Shown here: positions 4,311 to 34,346 of the stretch, piece by piece | Position numbering within the stretch: the stretch's first letter is position 1 | Layout of the letters: each line of letters starts with the position of its first letter | DNA from: Acidobacteriota bacterium | Lineage (GTDB): Bacteria; Acidobacteriota; UBA4820; DSQY01 | Direction: 5' to 3' | Assembly: GCA_049967655.1 (NCBI GenBank) | Contig: JBMFSH010000030.1 | Span: 1 to 34,346 of the forward strand | Length of the DNA stretch: 34,346 bases | Position numbers and translations under genes: made by a program | The notes under the pieces: generated by a model | Seen by the model: the letters and a program-made list of their open reading frames with translations, nothing else | Databases searched by the model: none | What the model was told of the DNA's origin: nothing

Positions 4311-6038
4311 TCACGGGGCTTCAAGGGGGACGAGGCTGAAGCGCTCCACGTCCACGAGGCCCTTGTCCGTGAGCTTGAGGCTCGGAATCACCGGAAGGGC
4401 GATGAAGGCCAGAGTCATGAAGGGGGCGGGGAGCGGGCAGCCGCATTCGCGCGCCGCCTCGTGGATCTGCTGGAGGGAGCCAGCCACCTCCACCGCCCCG
4501 GCGGTGGACATGAGGCCCGCCACGGGCAGGGAGAGGGTGGCCAGAACGCGCCCCTCGCACACCACCGCGAAGCCGCCGCCCATGGTGGCCACGACCTTCG
4601 CGGCGTGCGCCATCTCGTGGGGCGAAACCCCGACCGCCACGCAGTTGTGGCTGTCGTGGCTCACCGTGCTCGCGAAGGCCCCCGTCTTCAGGCCGAAGCC
4701 GGAGACGAAGCCGAGCCCCACGTTGCCGGTGCCGCGGTGGCGCTCGATCACGGCGGCGAATTGGAGAGGCTTGGAGGCCCCCGCCTCCGCCGCGTTTCCC
4801 GTTTCGCTCCTCGTGGTGATCTGCGCCGGCTCCACGCCGATGACCCTCACGCGGCCGGAGGCGGGGAAGCGGCCCAGCCGCGCTTCAAGGTCGGGCGGCA
4901 AGTGGACCGAGGAGAGGATCCCGGCCGCCTCCCTCCGGGCGATGGGGGCCAGCAGGCGTCCCTCCTCCGCCACCTTGAGCCCGTCGTGGTAGACCGAGAG
5001 GACCTCGAAATCCCGCAGGTCCCGCAGCACCACCAGATCAGCGCGGAAGCCGGGCCCGATGCCGCCGCGGTCCCTGAAGCCGTAGAGGACGGCGGGGTTG
5101 AGCGTAACGGCGCGCAGGGCCCAGAGCGGGTCCAGCCCGGCCCTCACGGCCACCCGGAGGGCGTGGTCCAGGTGCCCCTCGCGCACCAGGTCGTCGGGAT
5201 GGCGGTCGTCGGAGGCGATACAGACCCGGTGCAGGTTGCCGGCCGTGACCGCGGGAGCCAGGGAGGCCAGGTTTTTGGCCACGGAGCCCTCGCGCAGGAG
5301 CACCCACATGCCCCTCCTGAGCTTGGCCAGGGCCTCCTCCGTGCTCCCGCACTCGTGGTCCGTCAGGATCGCCGCGTTCAGGTAGGCATCCAGGTCTCGC
5401 CCCTGAAGGCCGGGAGAGTGGCCGTCCACCATGAGTCCCCGGCGCTGGGCCGCGAGCACCTTGGCGAGAACCTCGGGAACCCCGTGAATCACTCCGGGGA
5501 AGTTCATCATCTCCGAGAGGGCCACCACGTCCGGGTAGGCCCCCATGGCGCCATCCAGGTCGGCCGCCTCCAGCGACGCGCCGGCCGTCTCCATGTGGGT
5601 CGCCGGCACGCAGGAGGGAAGGGTGAAAAAGAGGTCCACGGGAAGGCCCTCGGCGGCCCGCCTCATGTAGGCGTAGCCATGGAGCCCCAGAACGTTCACG
5701 ATCTCGTGCGGGTCGCTCACGGTGGCTCCGGTCCCGTGCGGCACCACGGCTTCGGCGAAGCCCTCCGGCGTAAGCATGGAGGATTCCACGTGGATGTGGG
5801 GGTCGGTGAAGGCCGGGCTGAGGTAGGCGCCCTTCAGGTCCACCACCTCGCGCGCCCTGCGCTCGCCGCCCCCCAGGGCGCACACCCTGCCCTCGGCCAC
5901 CGACACCGTGGTCTCCAGGATCTCTCCGGTGAAGGTGGAGACGACCCGGCCGTTGACGAAGAGGAGGTCGGCCGGCTCCTCGCCCCGGGCCACGCGAATC
6001 CGCTTGGAGAGAGACCCGATCCCCGTTTCCGCCGTCAT
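4311..6038 (-). CDS. ade: Adenine deaminase (amidohydrolase family)
   Basis: 575 aa with DPHIHVESS, SDPHEIVNV, LPSCVPAT, EMMNFPGV, DGHSP, DHEC, REGS, SDDRHP and HDSHN motifs typical of AdeC. Confidence 0.95.
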   Translation of the reverse strand: MTAETGIGSLSKRIRVARGEEPADLLFVNGRVVSTFTGEILETTVSVAEGRVCALGGGERRAREVVDLKGAYLSPAFTDPHIHVESSMLTPEGFAEAVVPHGTGATVSDPHEIVNVLGLHGYAYMRRAAEGLPVDLFFTLPSCVPATHMETAGASLEAADLDGAMGAYPDVVALSEMMNFPGVIHGVPEVLAKVLAAQRRGLMVDGHSPGLQGRDLDAYLNAAILTDHECGSTEEALAKLRRGMWVLLREGSVAKNLASLAPAVTAGNLHRVCIASDDRHPDDLVREGHLDHALRVAVRAGLDPLWALRAVTLNPAVLYGFRDRGGIGPGFRADLVVLRDLRDFEVLSVYHDGLKVAEEGRLLAPIARREAAGILSSVHLPPDLEARLGRFPASGRVRVIGVEPAQITTRSETGNAAEAGASKPLQFAAVIERHRGTGNVGLGFVSGFGLKTGAFASTVSHDSHNCVAVGVSPHEMAHAAKVVATMGGGFAVVCEGRVLATLSLPVAGLMSTAGAVEVAGSLQQIHEAARECGCPLPAPFMTLAFIALPVIPSLKLTDKGLVDVERFSLVPLEAP

Positions 6039-9058: not shown

Positions 9059-10042
9059 TTGCGAATCGGCATCAACGGACTGGGAAGGATCGGACGGGGG
9101 TTTCTGAAGACCGTCTGGAAGGACCCCCGGCTTCAGGTCACCGCGCTGAACGACGTGGCCGAGGGGGCGGTCCTGGCCCACCTCCTGCGCCACGACTCCT
9201 ACTACGGCCCATGGAACACTCCGGTGACGGAGGTCCCCGAGGGTATCTCCGTGGGGGGGCGTACCATGCCGCTCTACCACTGCGCCTCGCCGAACGACAT
9301 CCCCTGGGAGGAGTGGGGCGTCGAGTGGGTCGTGGAGGCCACCGGCAAGTTCAAGAGCCGCCGGGCGATGGAGGGGCACCGCTGCAACGTCCTGCTCACG
9401 GCGTCGAGCCAGGAGGCCGACCGGCAGGTCGTCTTCGGCGTGAACCACGAATCGATCCGGCCTGGAGAGGTTCTCCTGTCCGCCACTTCGTGCACCACCC
9501 ACTGCGTGGTCCCTCCCCTGTGGGCGCTCCACGAGCGGTTCGGGGCCCGTTCGGTGCTCTTCAACACGGTCCACTGCTACAACGTGGGCCAGACCCTGGT
9601 GGACGCGCCCCAGAAGGATCTCAGGCGGGCTCGCGCGGGCGCCCTGAACATCATCCCCACCACCACGAGCGCTTCGCTGGCCCTCGAGGCCGTGCTACCC
9701 GACCTCAAGGGCAGGATCCGCGGGATGGCGGTGCGCGTTCCGGCCCCGGCCGTTTCCCTCACCGAGATCACCATCCAGGTGGAGCGCACGGCGAGCCCCG
9801 AGACCGTAACCGCCTGCCTTCAAGAGGCGGCGGACGGAAGCCTCAAGGGCATCCTCGCCCTCTCCCGGGAGGAGCTGGTATCCCAGGACTTCCTGGCAAG
9901 CACGGCCTCTTCGACGGTGGACCTGCCCCTGTTGCAGGTCCAGGAGGATCTCGTGAGGCTCATCGCCTGGTACGACAACGAATGGGGGTACGTCCACCGG
10001 CTGGTGGACCTGCTCGCCTACCTGGAGGGGAGGCAGACGTGA
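9059..10042 (+). CDS. gap: Type I glyceraldehyde-3-phosphate dehydrogenase family protein (divergent)
   Basis: GINGLGRIGR, VVEATG, catalytic SCTTHC, RRARAG, NIIPTTT, GMAVRVP and WYDNEWGY motifs. TTG start after AAGGAGG; GTGA overlap with pgk. Confidence 0.9.
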   Translation: MRIGINGLGRIGRGFLKTVWKDPRLQVTALNDVAEGAVLAHLLRHDSYYGPWNTPVTEVPEGISVGGRTMPLYHCASPNDIPWEEWGVEWVVEATGKFKSRRAMEGHRCNVLLTASSQEADRQVVFGVNHESIRPGEVLLSATSCTTHCVVPPLWALHERFGARSVLFNTVHCYNVGQTLVDAPQKDLRRARAGALNIIPTTTSASLALEAVLPDLKGRIRGMAVRVPAPAVSLTEITIQVERTASPETVTACLQEAADGSLKGILALSREELVSQDFLASTASSTVDLPLLQVQEDLVRLIAWYDNEWGYVHRLVDLLAYLEGRQT

Positions 10043-11226
10043 ACAGGTATCTGTCGGTGCGCGACCTGCCGGTACTGGACAGGAAGGTTCTGGTCCGGGT
10101 GGATCTGAACGTCCCCCTCCGAGAGGGGCTGATCCAGGACGAGACGAGGATTCTGTCCGTCCTACCAACTCTGACCTCCATCCTGGATCGGGGAGGGGCG
10201 GTCATCGCCTGCTCCCATCTGGGGCGCCCCAAGGGAGCCGTGGTGCCGGCCCTCTCGCTCGGCCCCGTGGCCCGTCGGCTGGCGGAGCTCCTGCCCGATA
10301 GGACGGTATTCGCGGCCGGAGACGTCGTGGGACCCGACGCCAGGGCGAAGGCCGCGGGACTAAAGCCGGGGCAGCTGCTCCTTCTGGAAAACGTGCGCTT
10401 CGAACCCGGCGAGGCTAAGGAAGACGAGGCCTTCGCGGAGGCCCTACGGTCCCTCGCCGATCTCTACGTGAATGACGCCTTCGGCTCGTGCCATCGCGCG
10501 CACGCTTCCGTCCACGGCGTAGCCAAGCTCTTTCCTAGGGCGGCGGCGGGGCTGTTGCTCGAGAGGGAGCTCCAGTACCTCGAAGGGCGGCTGAACGATC
10601 CGGAGCGTCCCTACGCCGCCTTCCTGGGCGGGGCCAAGGTCTCGGACAAGGTCCCCATCCTGGAGCGGCTCCTCGACCGGGTGGACTCCCTCTGCGTGGG
10701 CGGCGCCATGGCGCTGAACTTTCTCGCCGCTCGGGGGCTTCCCACGGGAAGAAGTCTCATCGAGCCCGATCTGGCGGGGGTCTGCAAGGCCATCCTCACC
10801 CGAGCCGGAGAGAAAAAGGTCCATCTGCTCCTCCCCGTGGACCACGTGGCTGCGGCCGCCTTGGAGGCGGAGGAGGCCGAGGTGGTGGACGCGGACGCCC
10901 TGCCCGAAGGGCTGGCCGCCTTCGACATCGGCCCCCGGACCATCCGGCGGTTCAGCGACATCGCGCTCGCCAGCCGAACCCTCTTCTGGAACGGCCCCAT
11001 GGGGGTCTTCGAGCGGCCCCTCTTCTCCACCGGGACCATCGAACTGGCCAAGGCGGTCGCCACATCCGAGGGAGTGAGCGTGATCGGAGGGGGAGACTCG
11101 ATCTCGGCCGTGCACGCGGCGGGCGTGGCCTCCTCCATCGACCACATCTCCACCGGAGGAGGCGCCTCACTGGCGCTCGTGGCCGGGGAAAAGCTCCCCG
11201 GCCTGGAATTTCTTTCCCGCCCCTGA
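10039..11226 (+). CDS. pgk: Phosphoglycerate kinase
   Basis: RVDLNVP, SHLGRP, LLENVRF, VNDAFG..HRAHAS, GGAKVSDK, WNGPMGVFE, GGGDS and HISTGGGA motifs. True start is GTG at 10039, overlapping the gap stop. Confidence 0.96.
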   Translation: MNRYLSVRDLPVLDRKVLVRVDLNVPLREGLIQDETRILSVLPTLTSILDRGGAVIACSHLGRPKGAVVPALSLGPVARRLAELLPDRTVFAAGDVVGPDARAKAAGLKPGQLLLLENVRFEPGEAKEDEAFAEALRSLADLYVNDAFGSCHRAHASVHGVAKLFPRAAAGLLLERELQYLEGRLNDPERPYAAFLGGAKVSDKVPILERLLDRVDSLCVGGAMALNFLAARGLPTGRSLIEPDLAGVCKAILTRAGEKKVHLLLPVDHVAAAALEAEEAEVVDADALPEGLAAFDIGPRTIRRFSDIALASRTLFWNGPMGVFERPLFSTGTIELAKAVATSEGVSVIGGGDSISAVHAAGVASSIDHISTGGGASLALVAGEKLPGLEFLSRP

Positions 11227-13695: not shown

Positions 13696-15495
13696 TCAGC
13701 GGTCTAACTCCTTGATCCTCTTGCGCATGGCGATGGCCCTCGGATCCCTCAGGCTGACGGCCTGGGCCTTGTCCAGGTAAGCTCGGCACCGGGCGAACAG
13801 CCCGTTGTTCAAGTAAAATTCTGCCAGATCCAGCAGATATTCGATCTCCCCCGGGTTCAGCTCGATGGCCCGCTGAAACTCTCGTTCGGCCATGTGCTTG
13901 GCCCGGCTGTTGGTGTTCTTCTCGTAGATCTTCGCCATCAGGTAGTGGGCCTGAGCCGAAAAGCCGTTGTGGAAGAGCGCCAGCCTCAGGTGCTGGGAGG
14001 CATCGTGCCACTGCTCCTGGGCCATGCAGTCGATGGCCCGTTGGAGGCAGAGCTGGGCCTCCTGCTGGCGGCTCTCCGAGATCTGCCTGAGTGCGGTGTC
14101 GGCCTGGGCCACCGGATTCGGCCCCACCTCCGCCTCGGCGCTCTCGGCCCTTGCCTCGGCCTTGCGGTCTTCGAGGTAGCTGTTCTGCAGGAGGAGGAGA
14201 GACTCCCCCATCTTGGCGGTCAGAAAGAAGAGCTCCTTCTGGTGCCTCTTGAACACCTCCGGATGCAGATTGGCCTGGCTGAGGCGCTCCTTCAGCGCCT
14301 CGTGGGCCTTCACCGCCTCGGCCGGCGCGCTGCCCGGGGGCACACCGAGGACCTTGTAAGGGCTGATGCCGGGGACCTTGAACGCCTGGACCAGGTTCTG
14401 GATGGCCTCCGACTGCCGCTGGATCAGGGCGGTCTCCTCATCGAGGCGAACCGCCAGGCCGGACAGCCGGAAGGGCGGCTCCACGGCGGGCTCGCTGGCG
14501 AGGAGGCCGAGCAGGAGGAGCAGGTACACCCCGCCCAGGAGCTGCCGCCCAGGCAGAATTCCCGTCTGGAGCAGGTCGGACACCGCCACCGGCTGCTGGC
14601 ACTGCTGGAGCAGGTAGCCGTGATGGGGTTGGATGGGCAGGTCCTCAGGGAGCATCTCCTCCACCCTGCCGACCTTGACGCCCGGCCTCTTGAGCACGGC
14701 CATCGCCTCCTCCGGGATCTGGTCGACCAGCTGCACCAGGAGGGCGGGGATCTCGATGGGCAGGAGTCCCTCCGGTATGACCACCGGCTCCGACCGGCAG
14801 GCCATGGGAGCGTGCAGGGGCAGGGAGGCGAGCAAGGAGAGGGTGGCCTGCTGTTTGACGGGCGCCATGGGGGCCGACCGAGCCAGCCTCTCCTCCAGCG
14901 CTGCCAGAGCGAGCTGGGGGTCCTCCCCCTGTTCGCCGCACTCCAGCCCGGCATCCAGGAGGCCCGACCGGTAGCGCTCCCAGTAGAGGGGGTGGACCAG
15001 GGTCCAGAGCCTTCCCTCACCGAACAGGAGGTGCAGTTCACCAGCCTGGGTTTGGACGGCGACCCTCCGGTGGGTGAAATCCACGAAACCCTCCCCCAGC
15101 AGCTCGATCAGGCTCATGCGGGCGGGGCCCGCTGCCTCAGCGAGACGGGCCAGGGCCTGCCGGCACGAGGACTCATCCAGGGGCCGCGGCAGAAGGACGG
15201 CCACCCCGGCGTCCCGGGCGCGGGTCTCCAGCTCCTCTCCCACTCCGGCGGCCGCCACGATGGCCACTGGAGGAAGATCGGGGAAGCGGCCCCTGGCCGT
15301 CCTCACGAAGGACAGCCCGTCCCACTGCCCGGCCAGCGTCATGTCGGCCACGATGGCCGTCGGCCTGCAGTCGGCCAGGAACTCCACGGCCTGCGCCACC
15401 GTGCCCCTCTCCTGGAGGTCCCAGGCCCTGGGAAGGGCCGCCCGGAGAATCTTGAGGAGGTCGGTATCGCGCGTGAGAACCAGAAGGGTGTTCAT
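13696..15495 (-). CDS. Multidomain protein: atypical receiver domain, DnaJ-like segment and C-terminal TPRs
   Basis: Start MNTLLVL overlaps the RuBisCO stop (ATGA). Receiver-like IVADMTL..DGLSF..LLPRP; J-like SPYKVLGV..HPE; TPR-like AQAHYLMAKIY, AEREFQRAIELNP and YLDKAQAVS. Confidence 0.78.
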   Translation of the reverse strand: MNTLLVLTRDTDLLKILRAALPRAWDLQERGTVAQAVEFLADCRPTAIVADMTLAGQWDGLSFVRTARGRFPDLPPVAIVAAAGVGEELETRARDAGVAVLLPRPLDESSCRQALARLAEAAGPARMSLIELLGEGFVDFTHRRVAVQTQAGELHLLFGEGRLWTLVHPLYWERYRSGLLDAGLECGEQGEDPQLALAALEERLARSAPMAPVKQQATLSLLASLPLHAPMACRSEPVVIPEGLLPIEIPALLVQLVDQIPEEAMAVLKRPGVKVGRVEEMLPEDLPIQPHHGYLLQQCQQPVAVSDLLQTGILPGRQLLGGVYLLLLLGLLASEPAVEPPFRLSGLAVRLDEETALIQRQSEAIQNLVQAFKVPGISPYKVLGVPPGSAPAEAVKAHEALKERLSQANLHPEVFKRHQKELFFLTAKMGESLLLLQNSYLEDRKAEARAESAEAEVGPNPVAQADTALRQISESRQQEAQLCLQRAIDCMAQEQWHDASQHLRLALFHNGFSAQAHYLMAKIYEKNTNSRAKHMAEREFQRAIELNPGEIEYLLDLAEFYLNNGLFARCRAYLDKAQAVSLRDPRAIAMRKRIKELDR

Positions 15496-16769
15496 CCTTG
15501 TCCCTTCCAGAAGGCAAGGGCCGTCCGGAGTTCGGGGGCCGACGAGGAGGCGTGTTCGAGCGTCAGTCCGGCGAGAACCGCCTCCACGGCCTGTCGGACG
15601 GCCTTCGTCCCCGCTGCGGTCCCGCCGGGATGGCCGTGGATCCCTCCGCCGAACTGGAGGATCACCTCCGTCCCGAACAGGGACATCAGAGCCGGAACGT
15701 GTCCTGGGTGCAGGCCGCCCGAGGCGATGGGCATGGCGGGCAGGATACCGCGCCAGTCCTGCCCGTCGGCCATCGCCCCATCCTCGGAGGGCCAGGCCCT
15801 CAAGGCCCGCGCCGATCGCAGCACGGCCTCCCGGCTCCCCTCCATCTTGCCCACCGCCGTTCCCACGTGAAGCTGATCGATTCCCGCGAGTCGCGCCGAG
15901 CGCGCCATCACCTCCATGGCGATCCCGTGCTCGGGTAGGCGCGTGAAGGCCGCGTGCATGGCCCTGTGCCCGTGAAGGACCAATCCCATGCCGGCTCCGC
16001 GGAGGCTCTGGACCCCCGACCAGCCGGCCGTCACCAGGTCGACCATGGCGAAGCGGCCGCCGAGGTGGGCCACGAGCCCCATCCTCCTCAGCATGACCTC
16101 CGTGGGGGCGGTGACGTTGGGGATGTACCCCTTGGCGGAGCCGGTCGCATCCTCCGCCCGCTTCGCCGCGTCGAGGCAGGCCCGGAGCCGCTCCTCGAAG
16201 GGACAGAAGCTCTGGGAGGTGAGGTTCTCGTCGTCCTTGACCACGTCGCAGCCCGCCACCATGGCCTCGTAGACCACCTGGGCCTGGGCCTTGGGATCCA
16301 GGCCGATCTTGGGCTTCACGATGGTGCCGACGAGGGGGCGGCCGGTGACGCCCAGGACCTCCCGGATACCCTGGATTCCTCTGGCCGGGCCCGGGAAGGA
16401 GGCAGCCAGGGCTTTCGGGAAGCGCACGGCCTCCAGGCGAAGCCTCCTCACCTCCTTCATCCCGAAGATGTTGCCCGCCACCGAAGAGAAGACCTGGGGC
16501 ATGTTGCCGCCCTCGAAGAGGACGGCGCCGTAGGCGATCACCACGCCCCGATCGTCCGCGGCGAGGACGCGCGCCCTCAGCCTCTCCCTCAGCTCGGGAG
16601 TGAGGGCCGCCACGTCGGTCCAGGTGCCGATGGAAGACTCGGCGGCCAGAGCATTGGCGGCCTTCTCCAGGGAGGTGCCCGCCTCCGGTTCCACGCGGAA
16701 CCGGCATACCAGGTCGTCCTCCAGCGGTTCACCGCCCAATTCCAGGTAGGGAAGCACTTCCCCGGGCAT
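15492..16769 (-). CDS. rbcL: Form III (archaeal-type) ribulose-1,5-bisphosphate carboxylase large subunit
   Basis: 425 aa with AESSIGTWT (E60/T65), GNIFGMK (N123), GTIVKPKIGL (K175/K177), KDDENL (K201/D203/E204), HGHRAMH (H294/R295), DQLHVGTAVGKMEG (H327/K334), ASGG (S379) and QFGGGIHGHP (G403/G404); spinach numbering. GGAGGAG RBS. Confidence 0.93.
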   Translation of the reverse strand: MPGEVLPYLELGGEPLEDDLVCRFRVEPEAGTSLEKAANALAAESSIGTWTDVAALTPELRERLRARVLAADDRGVVIAYGAVLFEGGNMPQVFSSVAGNIFGMKEVRRLRLEAVRFPKALAASFPGPARGIQGIREVLGVTGRPLVGTIVKPKIGLDPKAQAQVVYEAMVAGCDVVKDDENLTSQSFCPFEERLRACLDAAKRAEDATGSAKGYIPNVTAPTEVMLRRMGLVAHLGGRFAMVDLVTAGWSGVQSLRGAGMGLVLHGHRAMHAAFTRLPEHGIAMEVMARSARLAGIDQLHVGTAVGKMEGSREAVLRSARALRAWPSEDGAMADGQDWRGILPAMPIASGGLHPGHVPALMSLFGTEVILQFGGGIHGHPGGTAAGTKAVRQAVEAVLAGLTLEHASSSAPELRTALAFWKGQG

Positions 16770-16779
16770 GGCACTCCTC

Positions 16780-17646
16780 CTATGAACGTTCTCGCGCGGG
16801 GAGCGCGGGAGGGCAGAGGGCCAGGATATCCTTCACGAGCCCCCTTTCAGTAATGAAGGCCGTCACGTACTTGAGGTGCACCTTGTCGAAGGCCGGGTTC
16901 AGGACCAGGACCCCCGCCGGCGCGTCGGGCCACACCTCCGCCGGGTCCCGCTGCTCCACGGCCTCGTCGATGTGGTCCCGGACCACCTTGAGCGTGAGGG
17001 TCGCGCAGTAGGTGGGCACGTCGTACCGGCTAGCCACCACGCAGAAGATGCCCGTACCCACCTTGTTGATGAGGTATCCCGACGGGAGCACGGCGTCGGC
17101 ACCGAAGAGGAAGAGGTCGGCTCCGTCCAGCGCGACCTTGGCGGCAGCGTCCACCATGTGCCTCACCTCGATGCCCTCCCGCGCCAGCTCCGCGGCCGTG
17201 ATGCGCCCCTGAAAGCGGGGGCGGGTTTCCGTGTTCAGCACCGTGAAGCGCTTCCCCAGGCGCCAGGCCTCTTTGAGCACCGAGACCGCAGAGGAGGAGT
17301 GGCAATGCGTGAAGACCGTCATGCCGTCGCTCACCAGGTCTGCTCCGGCGCGGGCCATGGCCGCCTCGTCCCGGCGGACCTGTTCCAATAGCGCTCCGGC
17401 CCGCTCCGCCGGCCTGCCGGAGGCATCCTCCCCTTCCGCGCCGGACAGGAAGAGCTCGAGGAGATTTCTCAGCATGGGCTCGTTTGGACGGGCTTTAGCG
17501 AGAAGTTCGGCCAGGGCGCGACGGTCCGCTCCCGGCTCCACCGACAACTCCGCCGCCAGGGCTTCGAGGGCCGCCTTGGCGATGGCGTTGGCGCCCTGGA
17601 TCTCCAGGTTCCGAATGCGCGCGGCGGTGGTTTCCACGAGACCCAC
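16780..17646 (-). CDS. Ribose-1,5-bisphosphate isomerase (eIF2B alpha/beta/delta family)
   Basis: IQGA, ARP, THCHSS (catalytic Cys), NTETRP, GADA (catalytic Asp), NKVGT, NPAFD and ITERG motifs. Lies between the NMP phosphorylase and RuBisCO; GTG start with GGAGG RBS. Confidence 0.88.
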   Translation of the reverse strand: MGLVETTAARIRNLEIQGANAIAKAALEALAAELSVEPGADRRALAELLAKARPNEPMLRNLLELFLSGAEGEDASGRPAERAGALLEQVRRDEAAMARAGADLVSDGMTVFTHCHSSSAVSVLKEAWRLGKRFTVLNTETRPRFQGRITAAELAREGIEVRHMVDAAAKVALDGADLFLFGADAVLPSGYLINKVGTGIFCVVASRYDVPTYCATLTLKVVRDHIDEAVEQRDPAEVWPDAPAGVLVLNPAFDKVHLKYVTAFITERGLVKDILALCPPALPARERS

Positions 17647-17658
17647 GGGCGGTCCTCC

Positions 17659-19140
17659 CTACTGGATGACGAACATTTCCGGGTGCCGCTGCCAGTAATC
17701 CCACGCGAAGCCGAGGTCGGCCTCGTGCTCAGCGTGGATGCGAAAGAGCGGCTCGCCCTCCCGCACCGCCTCCCCCGCCTTCCTCAAGAGGTCCAACCCC
17801 GCGCCCAGATCCACGGGCGCCCCCGCGAGCTTGGCGCACTTGGCCACCAGGTGGTTGGCGACAGAGGCCACGGTGCCCGCCCGCGACGCCAGCCCCTCCC
17901 GCACGAGCGGCCCGGGGCGCACCGGTTCCCTGGCCCCCTGGGCGGCGATGAGGCGGAGCATCTTGTCGCGGGCCCTCCCGCTCCTCAGGATCTCCTCCGC
18001 CGTAGCCCTTCCCCGCCCCCCACGCACGGAGGGGTCGAACTCGATGATACGCCCGGCCAGGTCCAGGCTCTTGTCGAGCAGGTCCTTCGGGGCATCGGGA
18101 TCACACCGCAGCACCTGCATCACGTCCCGGGCCTCCAGGGCGGGGCCCACCCCCCGGCCGATGGGCTGGGAACCGTCCGTGAGCAGGGCCTCGACGTGGA
18201 GACCCATCCTGTCTCCCACGTATTCGAAGAGCTTTCTGAGCTGCACGGCCTGGGTGAAGCTGGCCACCTTCGCCGTGGGCCCCACGGGGATGTCGATGAG
18301 CACGTGGGTCGAACCGGCGGCCTTCTTCTTGGAGAGGATGGAGGCGATCATCTGCCCCGGCGCGTCCATGTTCAGCGGACGTTCCACTCCGATGATGATG
18401 TCGTCGGCTGGGGAGAGGGCGAAGGAGCCACCCCACGCGAGGCAGCCGTTCTCCTTCTCCACGATGGCCTTCAGGCGCTGAAGGCTCAGGGAGACCCCCG
18501 CCAGGGCCTCCATGGTATCCGCCGTGCCGGAGGGGGAGGTGATGGCACGGGAGGAGGTTTTCGGAATCGTGAGCCCGTAGACGGCCACGATGGGCACCAC
18601 CACCATGGTGGTCCGGTTGCCCGGGACGCCGCCGATGCAGTGCTTGTCCACCACCATCTCGCGGCCCCACTCCAGGCGCTCTCCGGTGTCGGCCATGGCC
18701 TCGGCGAGGTAGACGATCTCGTCCCGCTCCATGGCCCCCTGGGCCGTGGAGACCACGAAGGCCGTCAGCTCAACCTTCGAGTAGCGGTTCGAGACGATGT
18801 CCTGAACGATGTACCGGTAGTCCTCCCGTCTGAGCACCTCCCCGCGGATCTTCTTGCGGATGAGCTCCACCGAGCGCACTGGGTCCGGGTGTCGCACGCT
18901 CACTTCCGTGCCTTCGGGAAGGCCGAGCTTCTGGTAGGCGTACTCGCACAGGCCGATCTGGTCCGAGTCCAGGAAAGGTTCGTCCACCACGTCCAGGACC
19001 CCCACGATGCCGCGTCCGTTCGCCATGACCTCCACCTTCGAGAGGGCGCCGAACCCTTGCGCGCGGCAGAGGTCGCTGTCCCTCCGCAGGTAGAGGATGT
19101 ATTCGCGGTAGGTGTCGATCTTCAGCCTCTTGATGCGCAT
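17659..19140 (-). CDS. AMP/nucleoside-monophosphate phosphorylase (thymidine phosphorylase family with N-terminal extension)
   Basis: About 493 aa from MRIKRL. An N-terminal extra domain precedes a DeoA-like core with DKHCIGGVPGNRTT, PKTSSRAITSPSGTADTME, LSPADD, ASILSKKKAAGSTH, IDIPVGPTAK and QPIGRGVGPALEARD. Confidence 0.9.
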   Translation of the reverse strand: MRIKRLKIDTYREYILYLRRDSDLCRAQGFGALSKVEVMANGRGIVGVLDVVDEPFLDSDQIGLCEYAYQKLGLPEGTEVSVRHPDPVRSVELIRKKIRGEVLRREDYRYIVQDIVSNRYSKVELTAFVVSTAQGAMERDEIVYLAEAMADTGERLEWGREMVVDKHCIGGVPGNRTTMVVVPIVAVYGLTIPKTSSRAITSPSGTADTMEALAGVSLSLQRLKAIVEKENGCLAWGGSFALSPADDIIIGVERPLNMDAPGQMIASILSKKKAAGSTHVLIDIPVGPTAKVASFTQAVQLRKLFEYVGDRMGLHVEALLTDGSQPIGRGVGPALEARDVMQVLRCDPDAPKDLLDKSLDLAGRIIEFDPSVRGGRGRATAEEILRSGRARDKMLRLIAAQGAREPVRPGPLVREGLASRAGTVASVANHLVAKCAKLAGAPVDLGAGLDLLRKAGEAVREGEPLFRIHAEHEADLGFAWDYWQRHPEMFVIQ

Positions 19141-19186: not shown

Positions 19187-19192
19187 ATTATA
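19187..19192 (-). promoter_or_regulatory. -10 box candidate for the phosphorylase-isomerase-RuBisCO operon
   Basis: Perfect TATAAT on the - strand about 47 bp upstream of the ATG at 19140; no recognisable -35. Confidence 0.45.
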
Positions 19193-19278
19193 CACAAGCC
19201 GCCCGCCACGGCGCCCGGCTCCGGTCGGGAATCGTAAGGCACGAGACAATCACCCCCCCGCCCTATGGTTCCCTCCCC

Positions 19279-19334
19279 AATCGCTTAATCGCCTAATAGG
19301 TTAATCGCTTAATAGCCTAATAGCCTAATCACCC
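19279..19334. repeat. 8-bp tandem repeat, 7 units (AATMGSYT)
   Basis: AATCGCTT AATCGCCT AATAGGTT AATCGCTT AATAGCCT AATAGCCT AATCACCC read directly. Confidence 0.88.
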
Positions 19335-19348
19335 AGCCACCCCCCGCC

Positions 19349-21481
19349 TCACCGCCTGCCCCCCGCTTTCGTCTTCCTCCGGCCTCCTCCTTCCGCCGGC
19401 CATCCCTCCAGCAGGAAATGGGCCTCGCCCATGAGCCTGTCCACTCGCATGAGCCGCACGCAAACCTCGTCGCCCACCGTCAGAACCGCCCCGGAGTACC
19501 GCCCCCTCGCCGAGAGGCCGTCCCTGTCCACGGTGATGAAGTCTCCCTCCACCGCGTTGAAGGGACAGATGCCTTCGATCAGGTGCTCCACCAGCTCCAC
19601 CCGTGCGCCGAAGCGCGTGAACCCCAGCACCACCGCATCGAAGGTCTCCCCCAAGCGGTCCGCCAGGAAGGCCATCTGGAACCAGGCCACCACCTCCCGC
19701 TCGGCCTGGTCCGATGCCCGTTCCGTGGCGGAGCAGTGGACCGCGAGGGCCTCCAGGTCCGCCCCCGGCGCCGGAGAGCCCCAGAGCGCCCCGGCCAGGT
19801 TCCGGTGCACCAGCAGGTCCGGGTATCGGCGGATAGGGGAGGTGAAGTGGCAGTAGTGGGCAAAGCCCAGGCCGAAGTGGGGCAGCACCGCCGCGTGATA
19901 GCGCGCCTGGGCCATGGCCCGCAGGATCAGGTAGGCCACCAGCTTGGCCGCCCTGTGGCCCTCGGACTTGGCGAGCACGCGCTGGAGGGTGAAGGGGTCG
20001 GAGAGGTCACCCCGGCTCGCCTCACCCAGCCCGAGCGTGTTCAGGAGGGGCCGGAGGGCCTCCAGCTTCTCCGCGTTGGGCTCGTCGTGGACCCTGAAGA
20101 GGATGGCGATCTTCTGGCGCAGGCACTCGGCTGCGACGGCGCGGTTGCAGGCGAGCATGGCCTCCTCCACGATGCGGTGGGAGGCGAGCCGCACCGACGG
20201 GAGCACCTCCTCGACGCGCCCGGAGAGGCCGAATCGAAGCCCCGCCTCCGGCAGGTCCAGGTCCAGGGTGCCCGAGGCCAGGCGCCGCTGGAAGAGCCCG
20301 CGGGATATCTCCAGCGCCGCCCCCAACAGGCCCGCCACCTCGGGCGCGGCGCTCTCCCTTCCCTCCAGGACGGCCTGGGCCTGTTCGTAGGAGAGCCTCG
20401 CCGAGGAGCGGATGACCCCCCGGTGGAACCGCGCCAGACGCACGCGGCACTCCTCGTCCAGCTCCAGCTCCGCCGTGAGGGTCAGGCGATCTCGCTGCGG
20501 CTTCAGGGAGCACAGTCCGCTCGAGAGGGCGTGGGGCAGCATGGGATAGACGGTTCCGGGCAGGTAGGTGCTGTTCCCCCGGCGGCGGGCCTCGGTGTCG
20601 AGGGCGGAATCCGGCTTGACGTAGTGGGCCACGTCGGCGATGTGAACCCACAGCCTCCAGCCGTTGCCTGCCCGCTGCACGGAGAGGGCGTCGTCGAAAT
20701 CCTTCGCATCCTCGGGATCGATGGTGACCGTGGGAAGGGAGCGGAAGTCCTTCCGTTCCTGAAAATCCGACGGACGGGGGTCCTCCGGCAGGGTCGCGGC
20801 CTCCCGCTCGGCCGCCTCGGGGAAGTTCTGGGCAAGGCCGTACCGCGTCTCCGCCGCCAGAATGGGCGTGCGGGGATCGTCCAGAGGCCCCAGGACGCGG
20901 AGACCCGTGGAGAGGGCCGCTCCTCCATCGGACTCCAGCTCCACGCTCGCCACCATGCCTTCTGCGCCCGTGCCGCGGGGAAGCGCGATGGGTGCCCGCG
21001 AGCTGCCCATGGGCAGGAGAAGGCCGCCCTGGACGATGCCGACGACGGGCCGAACGTTTCTCTCCACGATCTCCAGGACCCTGGCCTCGGGCCTGCCGCC
21101 GGCCTCCCGGCCACGGGCACCGCGCCCGCCTCTGGGCCGCCCCGGAACTTCCTGGGCCAGCACACGGTCCCCCTCCAGGGCACCGCCCGTTTCCCTGGCC
21201 GGCACGAAGAGGTCGCCCTCGGCCCCGGATCGGTCGGGGGTGATGAAGCCGAAGCCTCCTCTGGCGGCGTGGAAGAGGCCCGTGAAGGTGCCGCCAGTTC
21301 TCGCCAGACGGTACCTCCGGTGCACCAGGGCCACCACGCTTTCCCGCAGGAGGGACTCCAGCACACCCGGGAGGGCCTTCCGCTCCCGCGGCGACAGGCC
21401 CAAGCCAGCCGCCACCTGGCTCCTGGTGCAGGGCTGGGAAGCCTCCGCGAGGAAATCGCGCACCCTCTCGCGCAGGGTCAT
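19349..21481 (-). CDS. rnr: Ribonuclease R
   Basis: N-terminal HTH, cold-shock domain GFGFI, RNB motifs TIDPEDAKDFDDAL, VHIADV, YPMLP..LS..LCSL, HFGLG and HFTSPIRRYPDL, S1 domain, basic tail. Start ATG 21481 (or GTG 21484). Confidence 0.94.
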   Translation of the reverse strand: MTLRERVRDFLAEASQPCTRSQVAAGLGLSPRERKALPGVLESLLRESVVALVHRRYRLARTGGTFTGLFHAARGGFGFITPDRSGAEGDLFVPARETGGALEGDRVLAQEVPGRPRGGRGARGREAGGRPEARVLEIVERNVRPVVGIVQGGLLLPMGSSRAPIALPRGTGAEGMVASVELESDGGAALSTGLRVLGPLDDPRTPILAAETRYGLAQNFPEAAEREAATLPEDPRPSDFQERKDFRSLPTVTIDPEDAKDFDDALSVQRAGNGWRLWVHIADVAHYVKPDSALDTEARRRGNSTYLPGTVYPMLPHALSSGLCSLKPQRDRLTLTAELELDEECRVRLARFHRGVIRSSARLSYEQAQAVLEGRESAAPEVAGLLGAALEISRGLFQRRLASGTLDLDLPEAGLRFGLSGRVEEVLPSVRLASHRIVEEAMLACNRAVAAECLRQKIAILFRVHDEPNAEKLEALRPLLNTLGLGEASRGDLSDPFTLQRVLAKSEGHRAAKLVAYLILRAMAQARYHAAVLPHFGLGFAHYCHFTSPIRRYPDLLVHRNLAGALWGSPAPGADLEALAVHCSATERASDQAEREVVAWFQMAFLADRLGETFDAVVLGFTRFGARVELVEHLIEGICPFNAVEGDFITVDRDGLSARGRYSGAVLTVGDEVCVRLMRVDRLMGEAHFLLEGWPAEGGGRRKTKAGGRR

Positions 21482-22236
21482 CACCGCCTCCTTCCCTTGG
21501 TCCGGAGCCCTGCCACCGCCAGGAGGGGCTCCCCTGCAAGGACTCGCCTGGGGTTCTCGATGCAGAGGCGGCGGGCCGACTCGATGCCATAGCGGCGCGC
21601 CACGCTGCGGACGGCCTCCCGAAAGAGGGGCGCCCGTCCGCTGGCCGAGTGCGCATCGGAGGCCAGAAGGTGCACCCACCCCCTGTCCAGGAGCGCCCAC
21701 GCCGCGCGGCGTATGGCCTGACCGAAATAGCCCACCAGGCTGTGGGTGGTGAGCTGGAAGGGGATTTGGGCCGCCGCCAGGAATGCCAGGCTGCCGGGGT
21801 CCCGGGTCACGTAGGCATACCGCTCCGGGTGGGCCAGGATGGGTTCCACACCTGCCATGCGCAGGTCGAAGAAGACCTCCTCCACCCCGGGAGGGCGCAA
21901 AAGGAGCGGGAGCTCCACCAGGAGGTAGCGGCCCGCCTCGCCCATGGGAATCAGCTTCCCGGCCCGGTAGGCGGAGACCAAGCGGGGACCGAAGGAGATT
22001 TCGCTCCCCAGGTGCACCGTGAAACCCAGGGATTCCGCCGGTTCTCTCCAGGCCTCGAAGGCCTCTCTGAGCAGGGTCGGCGTATTGGGGAACCGAGGCG
22101 GCGCGATGTGGGGAGTGACGCAGAGAGCGGAGATCTTCTCGCGGCGGGCCGCCTCCAGACATAGGGCCGACTCCTCCCAGTCGCCCACCCCGTCATCCAC
22201 TCCGGGAAGTAGGTGGCAGTGCAGGTCCACGTACAT
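21481..22236 (-). CDS. PHP-family metal-dependent protein-tyrosine phosphatase (CpsB/CapC/YwqE-like)
   Basis: DLHCHLLPGVDDG, TPH, GSE, LLVELP, LAHPERY and LASDAH motifs. Start at MYVD after a GAGGAG RBS; stop overlaps the rnr start. Confidence 0.88.
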   Translation of the reverse strand: MYVDLHCHLLPGVDDGVGDWEESALCLEAARREKISALCVTPHIAPPRFPNTPTLLREAFEAWREPAESLGFTVHLGSEISFGPRLVSAYRAGKLIPMGEAGRYLLVELPLLLRPPGVEEVFFDLRMAGVEPILAHPERYAYVTRDPGSLAFLAAAQIPFQLTTHSLVGYFGQAIRRAAWALLDRGWVHLLASDAHSASGRAPLFREAVRSVARRYGIESARRLCIENPRRVLAGEPLLAVAGLRTKGRRR

Positions 22237-22965: not shown

Positions 22966-23835
22966 GTGACCACGGGGGAGTGGCTCCAGCGCGCGGCGGC
23001 ATCCCTTCGAGCGGCCGGCGTTCCCGACCCGGCCAGGGACGCCCTGCTCCTTCTCTCCGACGCCCTGGGACGGGACAAGGCACACCTCCTGGCACACCCC
23101 GAGCGCCCACTGGCGGAGGCTGAAGCGGTCGGGCTCCGAATGCTCCTGGAACGCCGGAGGCACCGGGAGCCGCTCCAGTACATCCGCGGATTTCAAGAAT
23201 TCTGGGGCCGAAGGGTGAAGGTGGGGCCCGGCTGTCTGATTCCCCGTCCCGAGACCGAACACCTTGTGGAGGAGGCCCTCCGGCTCGTGGCATCCCTGGC
23301 GAGCCCGCGCTTGGCGGAGCTCGGAACGGGCTCGGGGTGCATTCTCCTTGCCCTGGCTTCGGAGCGCCCGGAGGCCAGACTCTACGGGCTTGAGAGGGAC
23401 CCGCGCGCGCTGGCCTGGAGCCGGCTCAATCTGGCGGACGCGCCGGGCGTGAGCCTGATTCCCGGAGACATGGCCCAGGAGCCGCCCCTCGAAGGCCTGG
23501 ACGCCGTTCTCTGCAACCCCCCCTACATCACCGACGAGGAGTGGAGCGGGCTGCTCCCGGAGGTCCGCTGCTTCGAACCGGAGGGGGCCCTGCGGTGTGG
23601 CGCGGAGCCGCTCCGGCCCTACCGGGAGGCCGGGCTGTGGGCGGCCAAAGCCCTGCGCCCGGGAGGATTCCTCTTGTGCGAACTGGGGGTGGCCCAGGCC
23701 AGGCGGGCGGCGGCCCTCAGGCGCCTCCGTCCGGAGCTGCGGTGGGTCCGAGGTGTGCGAGACCTGGCGGGGCGCCTGCGGGTGGCGATCTGGAGGCTGG
23801 AGCCGCTCAGGGAATCGGCTTCACCCGGTCCTTGA
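22966..23835 (+). CDS. prmC: Release factor glutamine methyltransferase
   Basis: EPLQYI, LIPRPETE, ELGTGSGCI, CNPPYI and RDLAG motifs. Confidence 0.92.
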   Translation: MTTGEWLQRAAASLRAAGVPDPARDALLLLSDALGRDKAHLLAHPERPLAEAEAVGLRMLLERRRHREPLQYIRGFQEFWGRRVKVGPGCLIPRPETEHLVEEALRLVASLASPRLAELGTGSGCILLALASERPEARLYGLERDPRALAWSRLNLADAPGVSLIPGDMAQEPPLEGLDAVLCNPPYITDEEWSGLLPEVRCFEPEGALRCGAEPLRPYREAGLWAAKALRPGGFLLCELGVAQARRAAALRRLRPELRWVRGVRDLAGRLRVAIWRLEPLRESASPGP

Positions 23836-26800
23836 TGTCCCTGTAGTTGGCGTTGACCGCGTAGACCTCGCGGAAGAGCTCCTGCGCCTCGGGGAGCCTG
23901 CCCTGCTCCTGAAGGGTCTCAGCCAGGTCGTACTTGAGACCGATGTAGGCCTGGTCGGAGAAGCCCGGCGCCTCGATCCCCTTGCGGTACCACTTCTCGG
24001 CGAGGTCCACCATGCCCTTCTGCCGGAAGCAGATGCCGAGCATGGAGCAGCACTCCACGAAGTACTGCGGCGAGCGCGCCGCGATCTGGAATTCCCCGAT
24101 GGCCTCGTCGAGGAGCTCCATCTCCTTGTAGGCGATACCCAGGTTGTAGTGGGTGGCGGAGTCCTCCTCGCTGACCTTTCGCTCCACCCCCTTCTTGAAC
24201 TCCTCGAAGACCTCCTCGAAGGACATCTCCTCGGGAGACTTGGACGATTCGTCGAAGAGGGACTCCTCCTCGGCTTCGAGCCCTTCCAGCGCTTCGCTGA
24301 GTTCGGAGGCGAGGTCGTAGTACTCGTCCTTCTTGGGGCCATCGGCGGCGAAGCTCTCCTTCTCCTGCGCGATGACCTCTTCGGGAAGGAGCTCCTGAAG
24401 GGAAACCTTCAGCTTGGTCCGTCCCCTCCCTCCCGCGCTCGGTTCCTGGGCCGGGTGCAATCGTCCCTCCTCCTCGGCGGCTCCGACGGTGCTCAAGATC
24501 TTCGACATCTCGGAGGAGAGCGACGCTTCTTCGGCCGCGAGGCTGGCCATCGGCTCCTCGGCTTTGGGCTCTGGAGAGACCTCGGGTTCCGCGGTGTCTT
24601 CAGGGGCTGCCGGTTCCGCCTCTAGCTCCAGCTCCTCCAGTCCACCCGCCTCGATGGAGAGAACCCCTTCCGAGGGAAGGCCTTCCGGCGCCCCTTCGGA
24701 TTCCGCCGGTTCGGCGGGTGCGGAGACGCCCAGGCGGTCGGCCAGGGAAAGCACCCGCGGATCATGCGGCCACCTCGCCCGCAGTCCCTCCAGCGCCCGC
24801 TGGGCCTCTCCGAAGAGCTCCTGGCTGTAGTAGAACTCGGCCTCCTCCAGCAGCTCCGCCAGGTCGGACCGGTCCTGGAGCTCCTCGGCGGAGATCTGAA
24901 CGGCCATGGATTCCACGGCGGGCGCCGGCGTCTCCTCCTGCAGGAACGCCCCGGTGGGCTCCTCCTCCAAAGGTTCCTGCGCCGGCTCGCCTGGGATCGC
25001 CTCTTCCAGGACCGGCTGGTCCTTCCCATCGAGGACCGGCTCTTCCGCCTCGGTGGCACCCGCGAAAGGCCCTTCGGTTTCCACCGGGGAAGACTCTTCC
25101 AGCTCGGCCTCCAGGATGATCTCCGGCGCCCCCTGGCCGGCTGGCGGCGCTGGCTGGTCCAGGGAGATGACCACCTCGGCCTGCTCGCGGGAGGGCTCCT
25201 CCACGGTCCCGAGAAGCTCCAGGTCGAGTTCCGGGAAGGAGGCGGGCACCGCCTTCGCCTTGGCGGCCTTCGGCCGGGCGGCTTCCTCGATCGGACCGGT
25301 CAGGGCGCCCGCGCCGGCAACCTCGGCGGGAGGAGCAGGGACGCCTTCGAGGAATCGCTGGATCTCCTCGCTGTTGGGATCCAGAGCGCGCGCCTCCTCC
25401 ACCAGGTTCTCGTACGTCTCCCCGTCCCCCTGGCCCTGAAATACCTGGGCGAGTTTGAGGATCTGCCGGACCGCCTTGGCGGTGTGTTTTTTGCTCTTGT
25501 AAATGGCGATGAGCTTCTGATGCGCGTGGATGTGGTCCGGAAGCTTCTTCAGGACGGACTGGAGTTCGGCGATGGCCTTCTCCGTCAGCCCATACTTCAG
25601 GAAGACCTCCGCCTCCGTGAGCTGTTCCCGGATGATTTCGGCCTCCCGGGCATCCAGGGCCGGCTTGGGGGAGACCTTCTCGACGCGGGCAGGCTCCTCG
25701 ACTTCCAGTTCGATCGGTTCCCCTTCGGCGGGAGGGCTCGGCGCCGGCGCCTCGGGCAGGTCCGCCGGGCGGGCAAAGGAGGCGGTCACCTCCGCCTTGG
25801 GGATCTGGAGATCCTCCATGTCAATCTCGATCTCCAGCTCTCCCGTCTCCTCGGGGGCGGGCGCAACCTCCTCTGGCTCCGGCTGTTTGGGCGGAGCCGC
25901 GTTCATCGCCCGTGCGTTCGCCTCGGCCTCCGGTGGCCCCTGCACTGGAGCGGGCGCCTGGAGCGGGCGCGCTTCCCCGGGGGTCGGGGCGTGCCTTCCG
26001 AGCTTGGTCTCCACGATCTTGAGGCGCTCCCGGTGGACCGGCGAATCCGGCTCGAGCCGCACGAGCTCCAGGAGGGCCTCTCTCGCCGAACCCAGCTCCC
26101 CCGCCTGGTGCGCCGCCTGGACGTAAGAATCGAGCGCCCGCAAGAGCCTCGGCTGGTTGCCGCTGCGCCTCAGCAGGTCGCAGAAACCCATCATGGTGGG
26201 CAGGTGGCCGGGCAGGTACCTGAGTAGCTCCTCGTAGAGGGCCTCCACGTCGGGGAGCCGCTCGGGCTCGCAGGTGCGTCCCCATTCGGACAGCAGGTCC
26301 GAGGCGGCGTCCGGCCGCTTCTGGAGGCCGTACAGCCTCACCAGGCGCCCGCGGGCGGCGACGCTGCCGGGGTGGTTCCTCAGGATGGCGTCGCAGACGG
26401 CCTCGGCCGCCGGATAATCCTGCCTCTCCGTGAGCACCTCCGCCTTCAGGAGCAGGAAACCCTCGGAGGTCGGGTGGCGCTCCAGCAGCTGTTCCAGGAT
26501 CTGGAGGGCCTGGTCCCCCTGCTGCCGGGCCAGGAGGTTTTTGACAAAACTCTCCAGCAGGCGGATGTTGTCAGGGTTGATCTGGAGAGCCCGCTCATAC
26601 AGCCTCGCCGCCTCCTTGGCGAGGCCCTGGGCGAGGAAGAGGTTGGCCGCCTTGAGGTATTCCTTGACCGCCTCCTCCGTGCGATCGAGCTTGAGCAGGT
26701 TATCGCCCACCTGAATCCGGACCTTCAGGTTCTCGGGCTCGATCTCCAGGATCTTCTTCTGGACGCGGACCGTGGCCTCCGCGTTTCCGCTCTGGGCCAC

Positions 26801-34188: not shown

Positions 34189-34346
34189 CGGCTCCTCCCC
34201 ATCCCTGGGCTCAGCGGCCTGTCGTCTAGGATGCGACCTCGCGGAGCCCAATGCAAGCCCGCGAGTCGACCCCAATCCCGCGATGGAACGGGGGAAAGAG
34301 CATGGAAAGCAGGCTGGGCAAGCCATTGAAGAAGGGGCCCTTGTCA

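Follow-up and report, generated by a model that had tools for sequence, protein, structure and literature searches.

The 34,346-nt contig JBMFSH010000030.1 (assembly GCA_049967655.1; GTDB lineage Bacteria; Acidobacteriota; UBA4820; DSQY01), which in its full length is called the window here, carries a gene, rbcL, for the large subunit of RuBisCO, the carboxylase/oxygenase that acts on ribulose-1,5-bisphosphate (RuBP). The question raised by this locus is what such an enzyme does in an acidobacterium, and where its gene came from. A preliminary description of the window, made from the DNA alone, had proposed a true carboxylase of archaeal Form III-b that had crossed between domains. We could confirm both the gene and the catalytic residues, although two further pathway genes directly upstream had been overlooked and the enzyme had been misplaced. 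As we read the locus, rbcL closes a deoA-e2b2-rbcL operon that very probably serves a carboxylating salvage of nucleotide ribose rather than autotrophy, and its product, which has a Form-III-like anatomy, is placed by sequence comparison in a bacterial clade that is basal to Form I.

The deoA-e2b2-rbcL operon and its distribution

The three genes of the operon are as follows.

15492..16769, minus strand: rbcL, RuBisCO large subunit, 425 aa, frame without stops, third gene of deoA-e2b2-rbcL
16780..17646, minus strand: e2b2, putative ribose-1,5-bisphosphate (R15P) isomerase, 288 aa, eIF2B family, of Peregrinibacteria/Candidate Phyla Radiation (CPR) type
17659..19140, minus strand: deoA, adenosine/nucleoside monophosphate (AMP/NMP) phosphorylase family, 493 aa from an ATG at 19140, of proteobacterial type

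They are separated by gaps of 12 nt (deoA-e2b2) and 10 nt (e2b2-rbcL), each with a ribosome-binding site, which in the shorter gap reads GGAG. The GTG at 19242 chosen by the ORF finder as the start of deoA is too early; the orthologs have 493 aa. The rbcL frame is intact and has the length and all three of the motifs that had been quoted for it.

Of the 30 genomes sampled from the class, 28 carry rbcL, among them all 23 that are at least 90% complete. Within the order the count was 28 of 29, the one miss being a genome of 67% completeness, and the single genome from the class's other order (78% complete) had no copy. The e2b2 gene was present in the same 28 genomes, adjoining rbcL in 27 of them and split from it at contig ends in the 28th (one weak match of 36% identity was seen elsewhere), and deoA lay directly upstream in all 22 genome loci with a flank that reaches it. 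Because the trio stays together while its flanks differ between families, we conclude that the three genes travel as a unit; since the genomes are kin, these order-wide counts represent one origin and not independent events. When 371 further genomes of the phylum were sampled outside the class, 22 gave an rbcL match, none of this type: five were 42-46% identical (four of these were retrieved, and the three that were scanned proved to be strict Form I) and the remainder 27-36%.

The GC content of rbcL tracks that of its host from 39% to 73% across the order, and in the window its GC of 0.70 and GC3 of 0.88 are in line with the neighbouring genes and the genome (0.67). Comparison with a congener gave dN/dS values of 0.12-0.16 for the three genes (0.14 for rbcL) by a simple count. 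Recent horizontal acquisition of rbcL was ruled out by this fit to neighbours and genome and by the way its GC follows the host order-wide, and the inter-domain transfer that had been suggested therefore fails as a recent import, as the gene is old.

Elsewhere in the phylum, four loci (L096-L099, in genomes G053, G152, G035 and G113) encode a strict Form I RuBisCO with transketolase nearby and, in three of the four, RbcS. Family f9 gave a match in all four of its genomes. These Acidobacteriota are candidates for a Calvin cycle.

Partner enzymes and the proposed pathway

The deoA product scored 582 bits against TIGR02645 (cut-off 434.6). In the Protein Data Bank (PDB) it matched 4GA5 best, with 357 bits, where thymidine and pyrimidine phosphorylases gave 105-139; we take 4GA5 to be the AMP phosphorylase of Thermococcus kodakarensis. 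The two align at GGVPGN, SRAITS, T203, D256, S264 and K288, which presumably have binding or catalytic roles. For e2b2 the best PDB matches were R15P isomerases of the T. kodakarensis/P. horikoshii type (150-138 bits, against 98 for MtnA), and the protein retains a THCHS motif with a Cys, and a downstream Asp, both of which we assume to be catalytic. A role as the MtnA of methionine salvage was ruled out, as a separate MtnA on contig C2 passes its cut-off.

No phosphoribulokinase (PRK) family gene was found in any of the 30 class genomes, 23 of which are at least 90% complete, using a search that was positive in 11 of 14 control genomes. The window's own genome, which is 99.3% complete, likewise has no PRK-family gene, and neither three PRK nor three RbcS query proteins from other loci found a match in it. 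We conclude from this gene content that the Calvin cycle is absent, and the genome check that had been proposed for prk thus gives no support to a Calvin-type role. Adenine phosphoribosyltransferase (APRT) was found in none of the 29 genomes of the order and is present in the lone class member outside it, which has no operon. The absence of APRT, as judged from this one outgroup genome only, would remove the simplest bypass of PRK and avoid a futile loop with the phosphorylase.

In the proposed pathway, RNA turnover would yield nucleoside monophosphates, which the deoA phosphorylase would split with phosphate to free base and R15P. The e2b2 isomerase would convert R15P to RuBP, and RuBisCO would join RuBP with CO2 to give two molecules of 3-phosphoglycerate for glycolysis or gluconeogenesis; released adenine may be recovered via adenine deaminase and HGPRT. 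The substrates of the two partner enzymes are predicted, as is the flux in vivo. Such a route would take up one CO2 for each nucleotide that is used, without regeneration of RuBP, and would therefore be heterotrophic salvage and not autotrophy.

A number of observations weigh against this assignment. The best family for e2b2, TIGR00511, was matched at 180 bits, under its cut-off of 314, and the protein carries IQGA where T. kodakarensis has IRGA, an Arg-to-Gln change common to CPR homologs. The deoA product reached 499 bits against TIGR03327 (AMP_phos), under the cut-off of 535, and our literature search found no assay of the proteobacterial phosphorylase subfamily to which it belongs. In the congener G003 (contig C27; loci L004 and L017) the deoA match ends at residue 283 and e2b2 is without its middle, by decay or misassembly. 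The need for a salvage route is itself unclear because, unlike in Thermococcales, transketolase, transaldolases, Rpe, RpiB and Prs give another pentose route. An E. coli gpmM query found no phosphoglycerate mutase, other families of which were not searched. Finally, the ortholog that carries an activity flag is slow, at <0.5/s (PMC12663927, Supplementary Data 3).

Some of these points would also suit an operon whose main task is the disposal of a side product or signal (excess AMP or R15P, or control of energy charge), with any carbon gain incidental. A slow enzyme, a redundant pentose route and the missing APRT are all consistent with this, as is the coupling, in the host's family (f1), to a downstream gene for a tetratricopeptide repeat (TPR) protein. 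However, the chemistry would be the same as in nucleotide salvage, and in two loci of a second family (f2) the downstream gene has been lost while the trio is kept. We regard a mainly disposal function as unlikely, and salvage as the better description of the operon.

Some further observations on these enzymes may be recorded here. The e2b2 gene is also split or short in genomes G020 and G022. An MTA/nucleoside phosphorylase gene adjoins one for a PfkB-family kinase at C5:98353-100166 (L162:2353-4166), a pair seen in four of five genomes tested; the kinase matched a ribose-1-phosphate kinase model weakly (49.5 bits, cut-off 330), and the pair could feed ribose-1-phosphate into the R15P pool. 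The class member outside the order (G029, 78% complete) carries its APRT gene at C256:2481-2972 and has an A-type oxidase, and gave no match to rbcL or e2b2.

Phylogenetic position of the RuBisCO

In favour of the assignment to archaeal Form III-b, the rbcL product passes TIGR03326 (rubisco_III, a curated type III model) with 509.8 bits against a cut-off of 497.45; it also passes the large-subunit model PRK04208. Its best PDB match is 6HUN (400 bits), which we take to be an archaeal enzyme. The C-terminus is about 18 residues short of the Form I rows and is without the insertion that these have nearby. As the protein of Ammonifex passes TIGR03326 too, the model is no mark of archaeal origin.

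Beyond the order, the closest named proteins come from bacteria, namely Ammonifex thiophilus (57% identity), Desulfothermobacter (55%) and Thermodesulfobium (52%), and a genome that shares its phylum with Ca. Stahlbacteria (WOR-3) has an rbcL match of 57-60%. In order to place rbcL, 393 profile matches were reduced to 313 (at least 340 positions, single domain) and then to 217 at 85% identity, from which 86 and 38 rows were picked by hand. Form IV and very long branches were left out, the sets contain no named Thermococcales, crenarchaeal, Form I' or Form I'' row, and the composition of the query is skewed in the 86-row set. A clade of the order, WOR-3, Ammonifex/Thermodesulfobium and Form I was recovered with support of 100/99 (LG+G4, 86 rows) and 99/98 (LG+C20 PMSF, 38 rows). 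Its inner branching is a polytomy, with the order and Ammonifex/Thermodesulfobium on separate branches of the 38-row tree. The placement rests on the trees, because when signature residues were sought for the wider clade only one column passed the filter. In addition, rbcL lies outside the branch of the single named Patescibacteria row, L078, whose form was not independently assigned.

Approximately unbiased (AU) tests rejected a grouping with Archaeoglobi III-b (p=0.023). A grouping with the set from DPANN, Altiarchaeota and Methanosarcina was 30 log-likelihood units worse and did not occur in the best trees, but escaped rejection at the 0.05 level (p=0.051). A union with I-beta (Ammonifex/Thermodesulfobium; p=0.156) and a position of the order outside all the rest of the clade (p=0.285) were both allowed. 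The same arrangement is seen in PMC13454268, where bacterial WOR-3 and I-beta sequences stand at the base of Form I and apart from IIIB; its tables assign three acidobacterial orthologs to clade 'I', and for one of the three they give the subform as 'UNK' and both RbcS and prk as false. We conclude from these comparisons that rbcL belongs to the basal Form I clade, with Form I taken in the wide sense of that paper, and not with Archaeoglobi III-b. The earlier assignment thus agrees with the type III model score, and its III-b grouping is not supported as it was put.

The history that went with it has the gene taken directly from an archaeon. Many proteins of DPANN, Altiarchaeota and Methanosarcinales are 47-55% identical to the rbcL product, PMC13454268 counts one archaeon (Fervidicoccus) within I-beta, and the gaps in archaeal sampling noted above, like the match to 6HUN, leave some room for it. 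Against this, besides the well supported clade and the rejected Archaeoglobi grouping, the nearest named relatives are bacterial and both partner genes are also nearest to bacterial proteins. We consider direct acquisition from an archaeon improbable. Ultimate archaeal ancestry of rbcL is a separate matter, and is only borderline disfavoured by the AU value for the non-Archaeoglobi archaea.

P0371 and P0374 (726-742 aa) have the RuBisCO domain C-terminal in a longer protein, of a size that fits published isomerase-RuBisCO fusions, and in P0394 (1265 aa) it is likewise at the C-terminal end.

Origin of the partner genes

The deoA product is sister to a proteobacterial 'thymidine phosphorylase family' (57-60% identity), with 100/100 support in two trees, and stands apart from archaeal and CPR phosphorylases (34-44% identity; CPR 34-43%). 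The e2b2 product forms a group (support 100/98) with proteins of Peregrinibacteria type and a single archaeal row, at 42-50% identity. Five e2b2-like matches were found in WOR-3 and Ammonifex, and the three from WOR-3 that were placed in the tree fall with MtnA. The trees of both genes used hand-picked rows and the simpler model, and do not give the direction of transfer. A single donor for the whole operon was considered and found no support: although deoA and e2b2 stand in the same order at Peregrinibacteria-type loci, the phosphorylases encoded there group elsewhere, at 41-43% identity.

None of the three genes has an archaeal protein as its nearest named relative, although the pathway probably goes back to archaea at a deeper level. 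By sequence affinity the operon is a mosaic of a RuBisCO from the basal Form I clade, a proteobacterial-type phosphorylase and a Peregrinibacteria-type isomerase. It would have come together a single time, in the order's ancestor or earlier, from parts with different nearest relatives, and inherited vertically thereafter.

Pentose metabolism of the host

A cycle that regenerates RuBP without PRK can be drawn on paper, as the genome has tkt, two tal genes, rpe, rpiB, prs, tpi, gap-pgk, enolase, HGPRT, PyrR/UPRT, PyrE and adenine deaminase, together with a phosphofructokinase (PFK) bearing a GGDD/PKTIDND motif, which we take to be of the reversible, pyrophosphate-dependent type. However, APRT, which would be the simplest closing step, is missing throughout the order, transaldolase was present in only two of five genomes tested, no pentose-pathway gene lies at the locus, unlike in Ammonifex, and the assayed ortholog is slow. 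We consider such a cycle very unlikely.

Queries with E. coli deoB, deoC, deoD, phnN, glpX and fbp gave no match in the genome, a result that applies to these queries only. There are two enolase genes (C16:32310-33581 and C62:1620-2873). Two HAD-family proteins are 29% identical to E. coli Gph, and a GlcD-like gene (32%) lies beside a GlcF-like gene; these assignments are putative, by similarity alone.

A heme-copper oxidase subunit is encoded by 23 of the 24 other f1 genomes (16 of them strongly, E<1e-100) and by none of four f2 genomes. The host's own copy scored 660 bits against CtaD, just under the cut-off of 670.75; the oxidase of the family is an A-type cytochrome c oxidase.

Catalytic residues and activity

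The residues that had been listed as evidence for carboxylation are all present. Using aligned Form I rows as anchors, and what we take to be the spinach numbering, E60, T65, N123, K175, K177, K201, D203 and E204 correspond to E44, T49, N100, K152, K154, K178, D180 and E181 of rbcL, and H294, R295, H327, K334, S379 and G403/G404 to H268, R269, H301, K308, S350 and G374/G375. These catalytic and RuBP-binding positions are invariant in 84 of 84 distinct orthologs, the exception being one N-terminally truncated row at E60/T65. Since two Form IV rows that we compared retain K175, K201, D203, E204, H294, R295, H327 and K334, the residue list alone is suggestive and not decisive, and the decision falls to tree and context. 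We nonetheless find it scarcely credible that rbcL encodes a Form IV RuBisCO-like protein or is a relic in decay: the same two Form IV rows deviate at K177, H298 and G380, at all of which the rbcL family is invariant, the product is far under the cut-offs of the Form IV models MtnW and OiaX, its tree position is among true RuBisCOs and outside the Form IV clade, dN/dS is low, and an ortholog has been flagged as active.

That ortholog, NMB99940.1, appears in PMC12663927 Supplementary Data 3 labelled as Form 3, without a rate and with the flag 'active<0.5s-1'; the same paper gives 3.4/s for the A. degensii RuBisCO, and PMC13454268 lists NMB99940.1 as 'attempted'. Its printed first 400 residues match P0052, the RuBisCO of G028 (family f2), which is 61% identical to that of the window. 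Together with the residue set, this agrees with the proposal of a true carboxylase. No f1 enzyme was found among those assayed in the two data sets. The suggestion that rbcL be screened for its kinetics and O2 tolerance thus holds in part: the case for a fast enzyme is weak given this ortholog, whereas the idea of O2 tolerance still stands, given the A-type cytochrome c oxidase of the host family.

Comparison with known systems

The closest functional parallel is the AMP/pentose bisphosphate pathway of T. kodakarensis, described in PMC6389311 and PMC12542636 as consisting of AMP phosphorylase, R15P isomerase and a Form III RuBisCO. The same three enzyme families occur here, both partners have their best PDB matches in that system, and PRK is missing. 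In contrast, the present host is bacterial and has a non-oxidative pentose phosphate pathway as well as, in f1, a cytochrome c oxidase of A type, its RuBisCO is apart from Archaeoglobi III-b, and its phosphorylase is of proteobacterial type.

Clusters of deoA, e2b2 and rbcL with a Form III-c RuBisCO have been described in CPR bacteria (Jaffe et al., PMC6389311, a paper in whose text Acidobacteria do not figure). There too, three pathway genes are consecutive in a bacterium and the history of the RuBisCO differs from that of its partners. However, the genomes studied here are Acidobacteriota of 2-4 Mb and not reduced cells, the operon is fixed order-wide and not patchy, the RuBisCO falls outside the clade of the CPR row L078, and the phosphorylase is closer to proteobacterial ones.

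The I-beta and WOR-3 RuBisCOs share the supported clade, a length of about 420 aa, the lack of a small subunit and 51-60% identity with rbcL. A PRK-family gene directly follows rbcL in all four WOR-3 genomes that have the gene (of 151 sampled) and in A. thiophilus, the one genome tested from an order in which rbcL occurs in 3 of 61; the Ammonifex locus also holds homologs of tal, tkt, rpe and gap. PMC12542636 reports a Calvin cycle in WOR-3 without AMP phosphorylase or isomerase. In the acidobacterial order PRK is missing and nucleotide-salvage genes precede rbcL. Because the sisters have PRK beside rbcL where this order has salvage genes, one clade occurs in two metabolic contexts. At three of the WOR-3 loci (L116, L118 and L119) rbcL overlaps the PRK-family gene directly behind it.

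The nearest precedent for a Form-I-related enzyme in a nucleotide-salvage context is the archaeal Form I-alpha RuBisCO proposed, in bioRxiv 10.64898/2026.09.21.753380, to act in a pentose bisphosphate pathway. That case concerns one archaeal metagenome-assembled genome and another subclade, whereas here a three-gene operon runs through a bacterial order. The pathway and the sequences were thus already known, and their combination is apparently unreported: neither an order-wide three-gene operon in Acidobacteria nor its mosaic origin nor the prk-free position in the clade was found in the open-access literature. PMC10103415, PMC7304191 and PMC12628685 contain no description of such an operon in Acidobacteria, which are also not mentioned in the main texts of PMC13454268 and PMC12542636.

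By what steps RuBisCO passed from nucleotide salvage to the Calvin cycle is still debatable, and the basal Form I clade has so far been described from prk-linked anaerobes. One possibility, which we put forward tentatively, is that the order is sister of all prk-linked members of the Form I-containing clade and that its RuBisCO is still in the older salvage role, the state before recruitment to the Calvin cycle. Family f1 would later have gained or kept O2 respiration, and enzymes without a small subunit may have adapted to O2 independently. The topology in question, with the order outside the rest of the clade, is one of several that the AU test allowed, and a later switch from a prk-linked donor fits the mosaic partner genes equally well. 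Relic or reversal alike, the switch of role would have taken place inside this clade. The roughly 80 natural sequences come from hosts that have an oxygen reductase and from hosts that lack one, and would allow O2 adaptation in the absence of a small subunit to be tested directly; if the tentative history is true, the four f2 orthologs, in whose hosts no heme-copper oxidase was found, are a built-in contrast.

On the salvage reading, the carboxylating nucleotide pathway would reach beyond archaea and the reduced cells of the CPR, into bacteria that are metabolically complete, and the proteobacterial-type phosphorylase would stand in a setting where the fate of its product is obvious. An rbcL of this order in metagenomes should then not be counted as autotrophy.

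Genes flanking the operon

The following features of the window lie outside the three-gene unit.

19187..19192, minus strand: candidate -10 element with the sequence TATAAT, some 47 nt upstream of where deoA starts
19349..22162, minus strand: rnr, RNase R/RNase II family exoribonuclease, directly upstream of deoA, start codon uncertain
13696..15495, minus strand: 599-aa TPR-containing protein, C-terminal TPRs, overlapping the rbcL stop (ATGA)
9059..11226, plus strand: gap-pgk pair, which can take up 3-phosphoglycerate; linkage to the operon is only a possibility
4311..6038, minus strand: adenine deaminase (TIGR01178, 551 bits, cut-off 472.5), candidate adenine route; linkage to the operon is only a possibility

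When five loci were viewed for the TATAAT upstream of deoA, it was seen in L016, L017, L018 and L025 and not in L020; a sigma-70 scan of the window called no full promoter at this site. The products of RNase R and RNase II are nucleoside monophosphates, and rnr may therefore be a source of substrate for the operon. In all 11 other f1 genomes whose flank is long enough it lies upstream of deoA; it does so in none of three f2 loci, which have other genes there. The gene for the 599-aa TPR protein is translationally coupled to rbcL, is probably cotranscribed with the operon and lies outside the pathway. Its product is fast-evolving (25-50% identity beyond the genus) and matched only a single TPR repeat model above cut-off; the gene occurs in f1 and in one f2 locus, with other genes in its place in L107 and L109.

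Between rnr and deoA (19279-19329, minus strand) a degenerate 8-nt unit, ATTRRGCK, is repeated in a short tandem array; the array is longer in two congeners and absent from three other loci viewed. The unit has 24 pattern matches on nine contigs of the genome, on both strands, and appears to be a dispersed intergenic repeat of the genus, unrelated to the operon. Contigs of run X2 include a 216-nt piece in rbcL (6 differences, depth 2.1) and a 152-nt piece in e2b2; being contigs, these are no evidence of transcription. An MFS transporter gene (3030-4253, minus strand) has its best matches with Tet(A)-family models, far under their cut-offs. Type IV pilus machinery is represented by an SgmX-like TPR protein (23807-27166) and PilT/PilU ATPases (3-1490 and 32947-34326), all on the minus strand.

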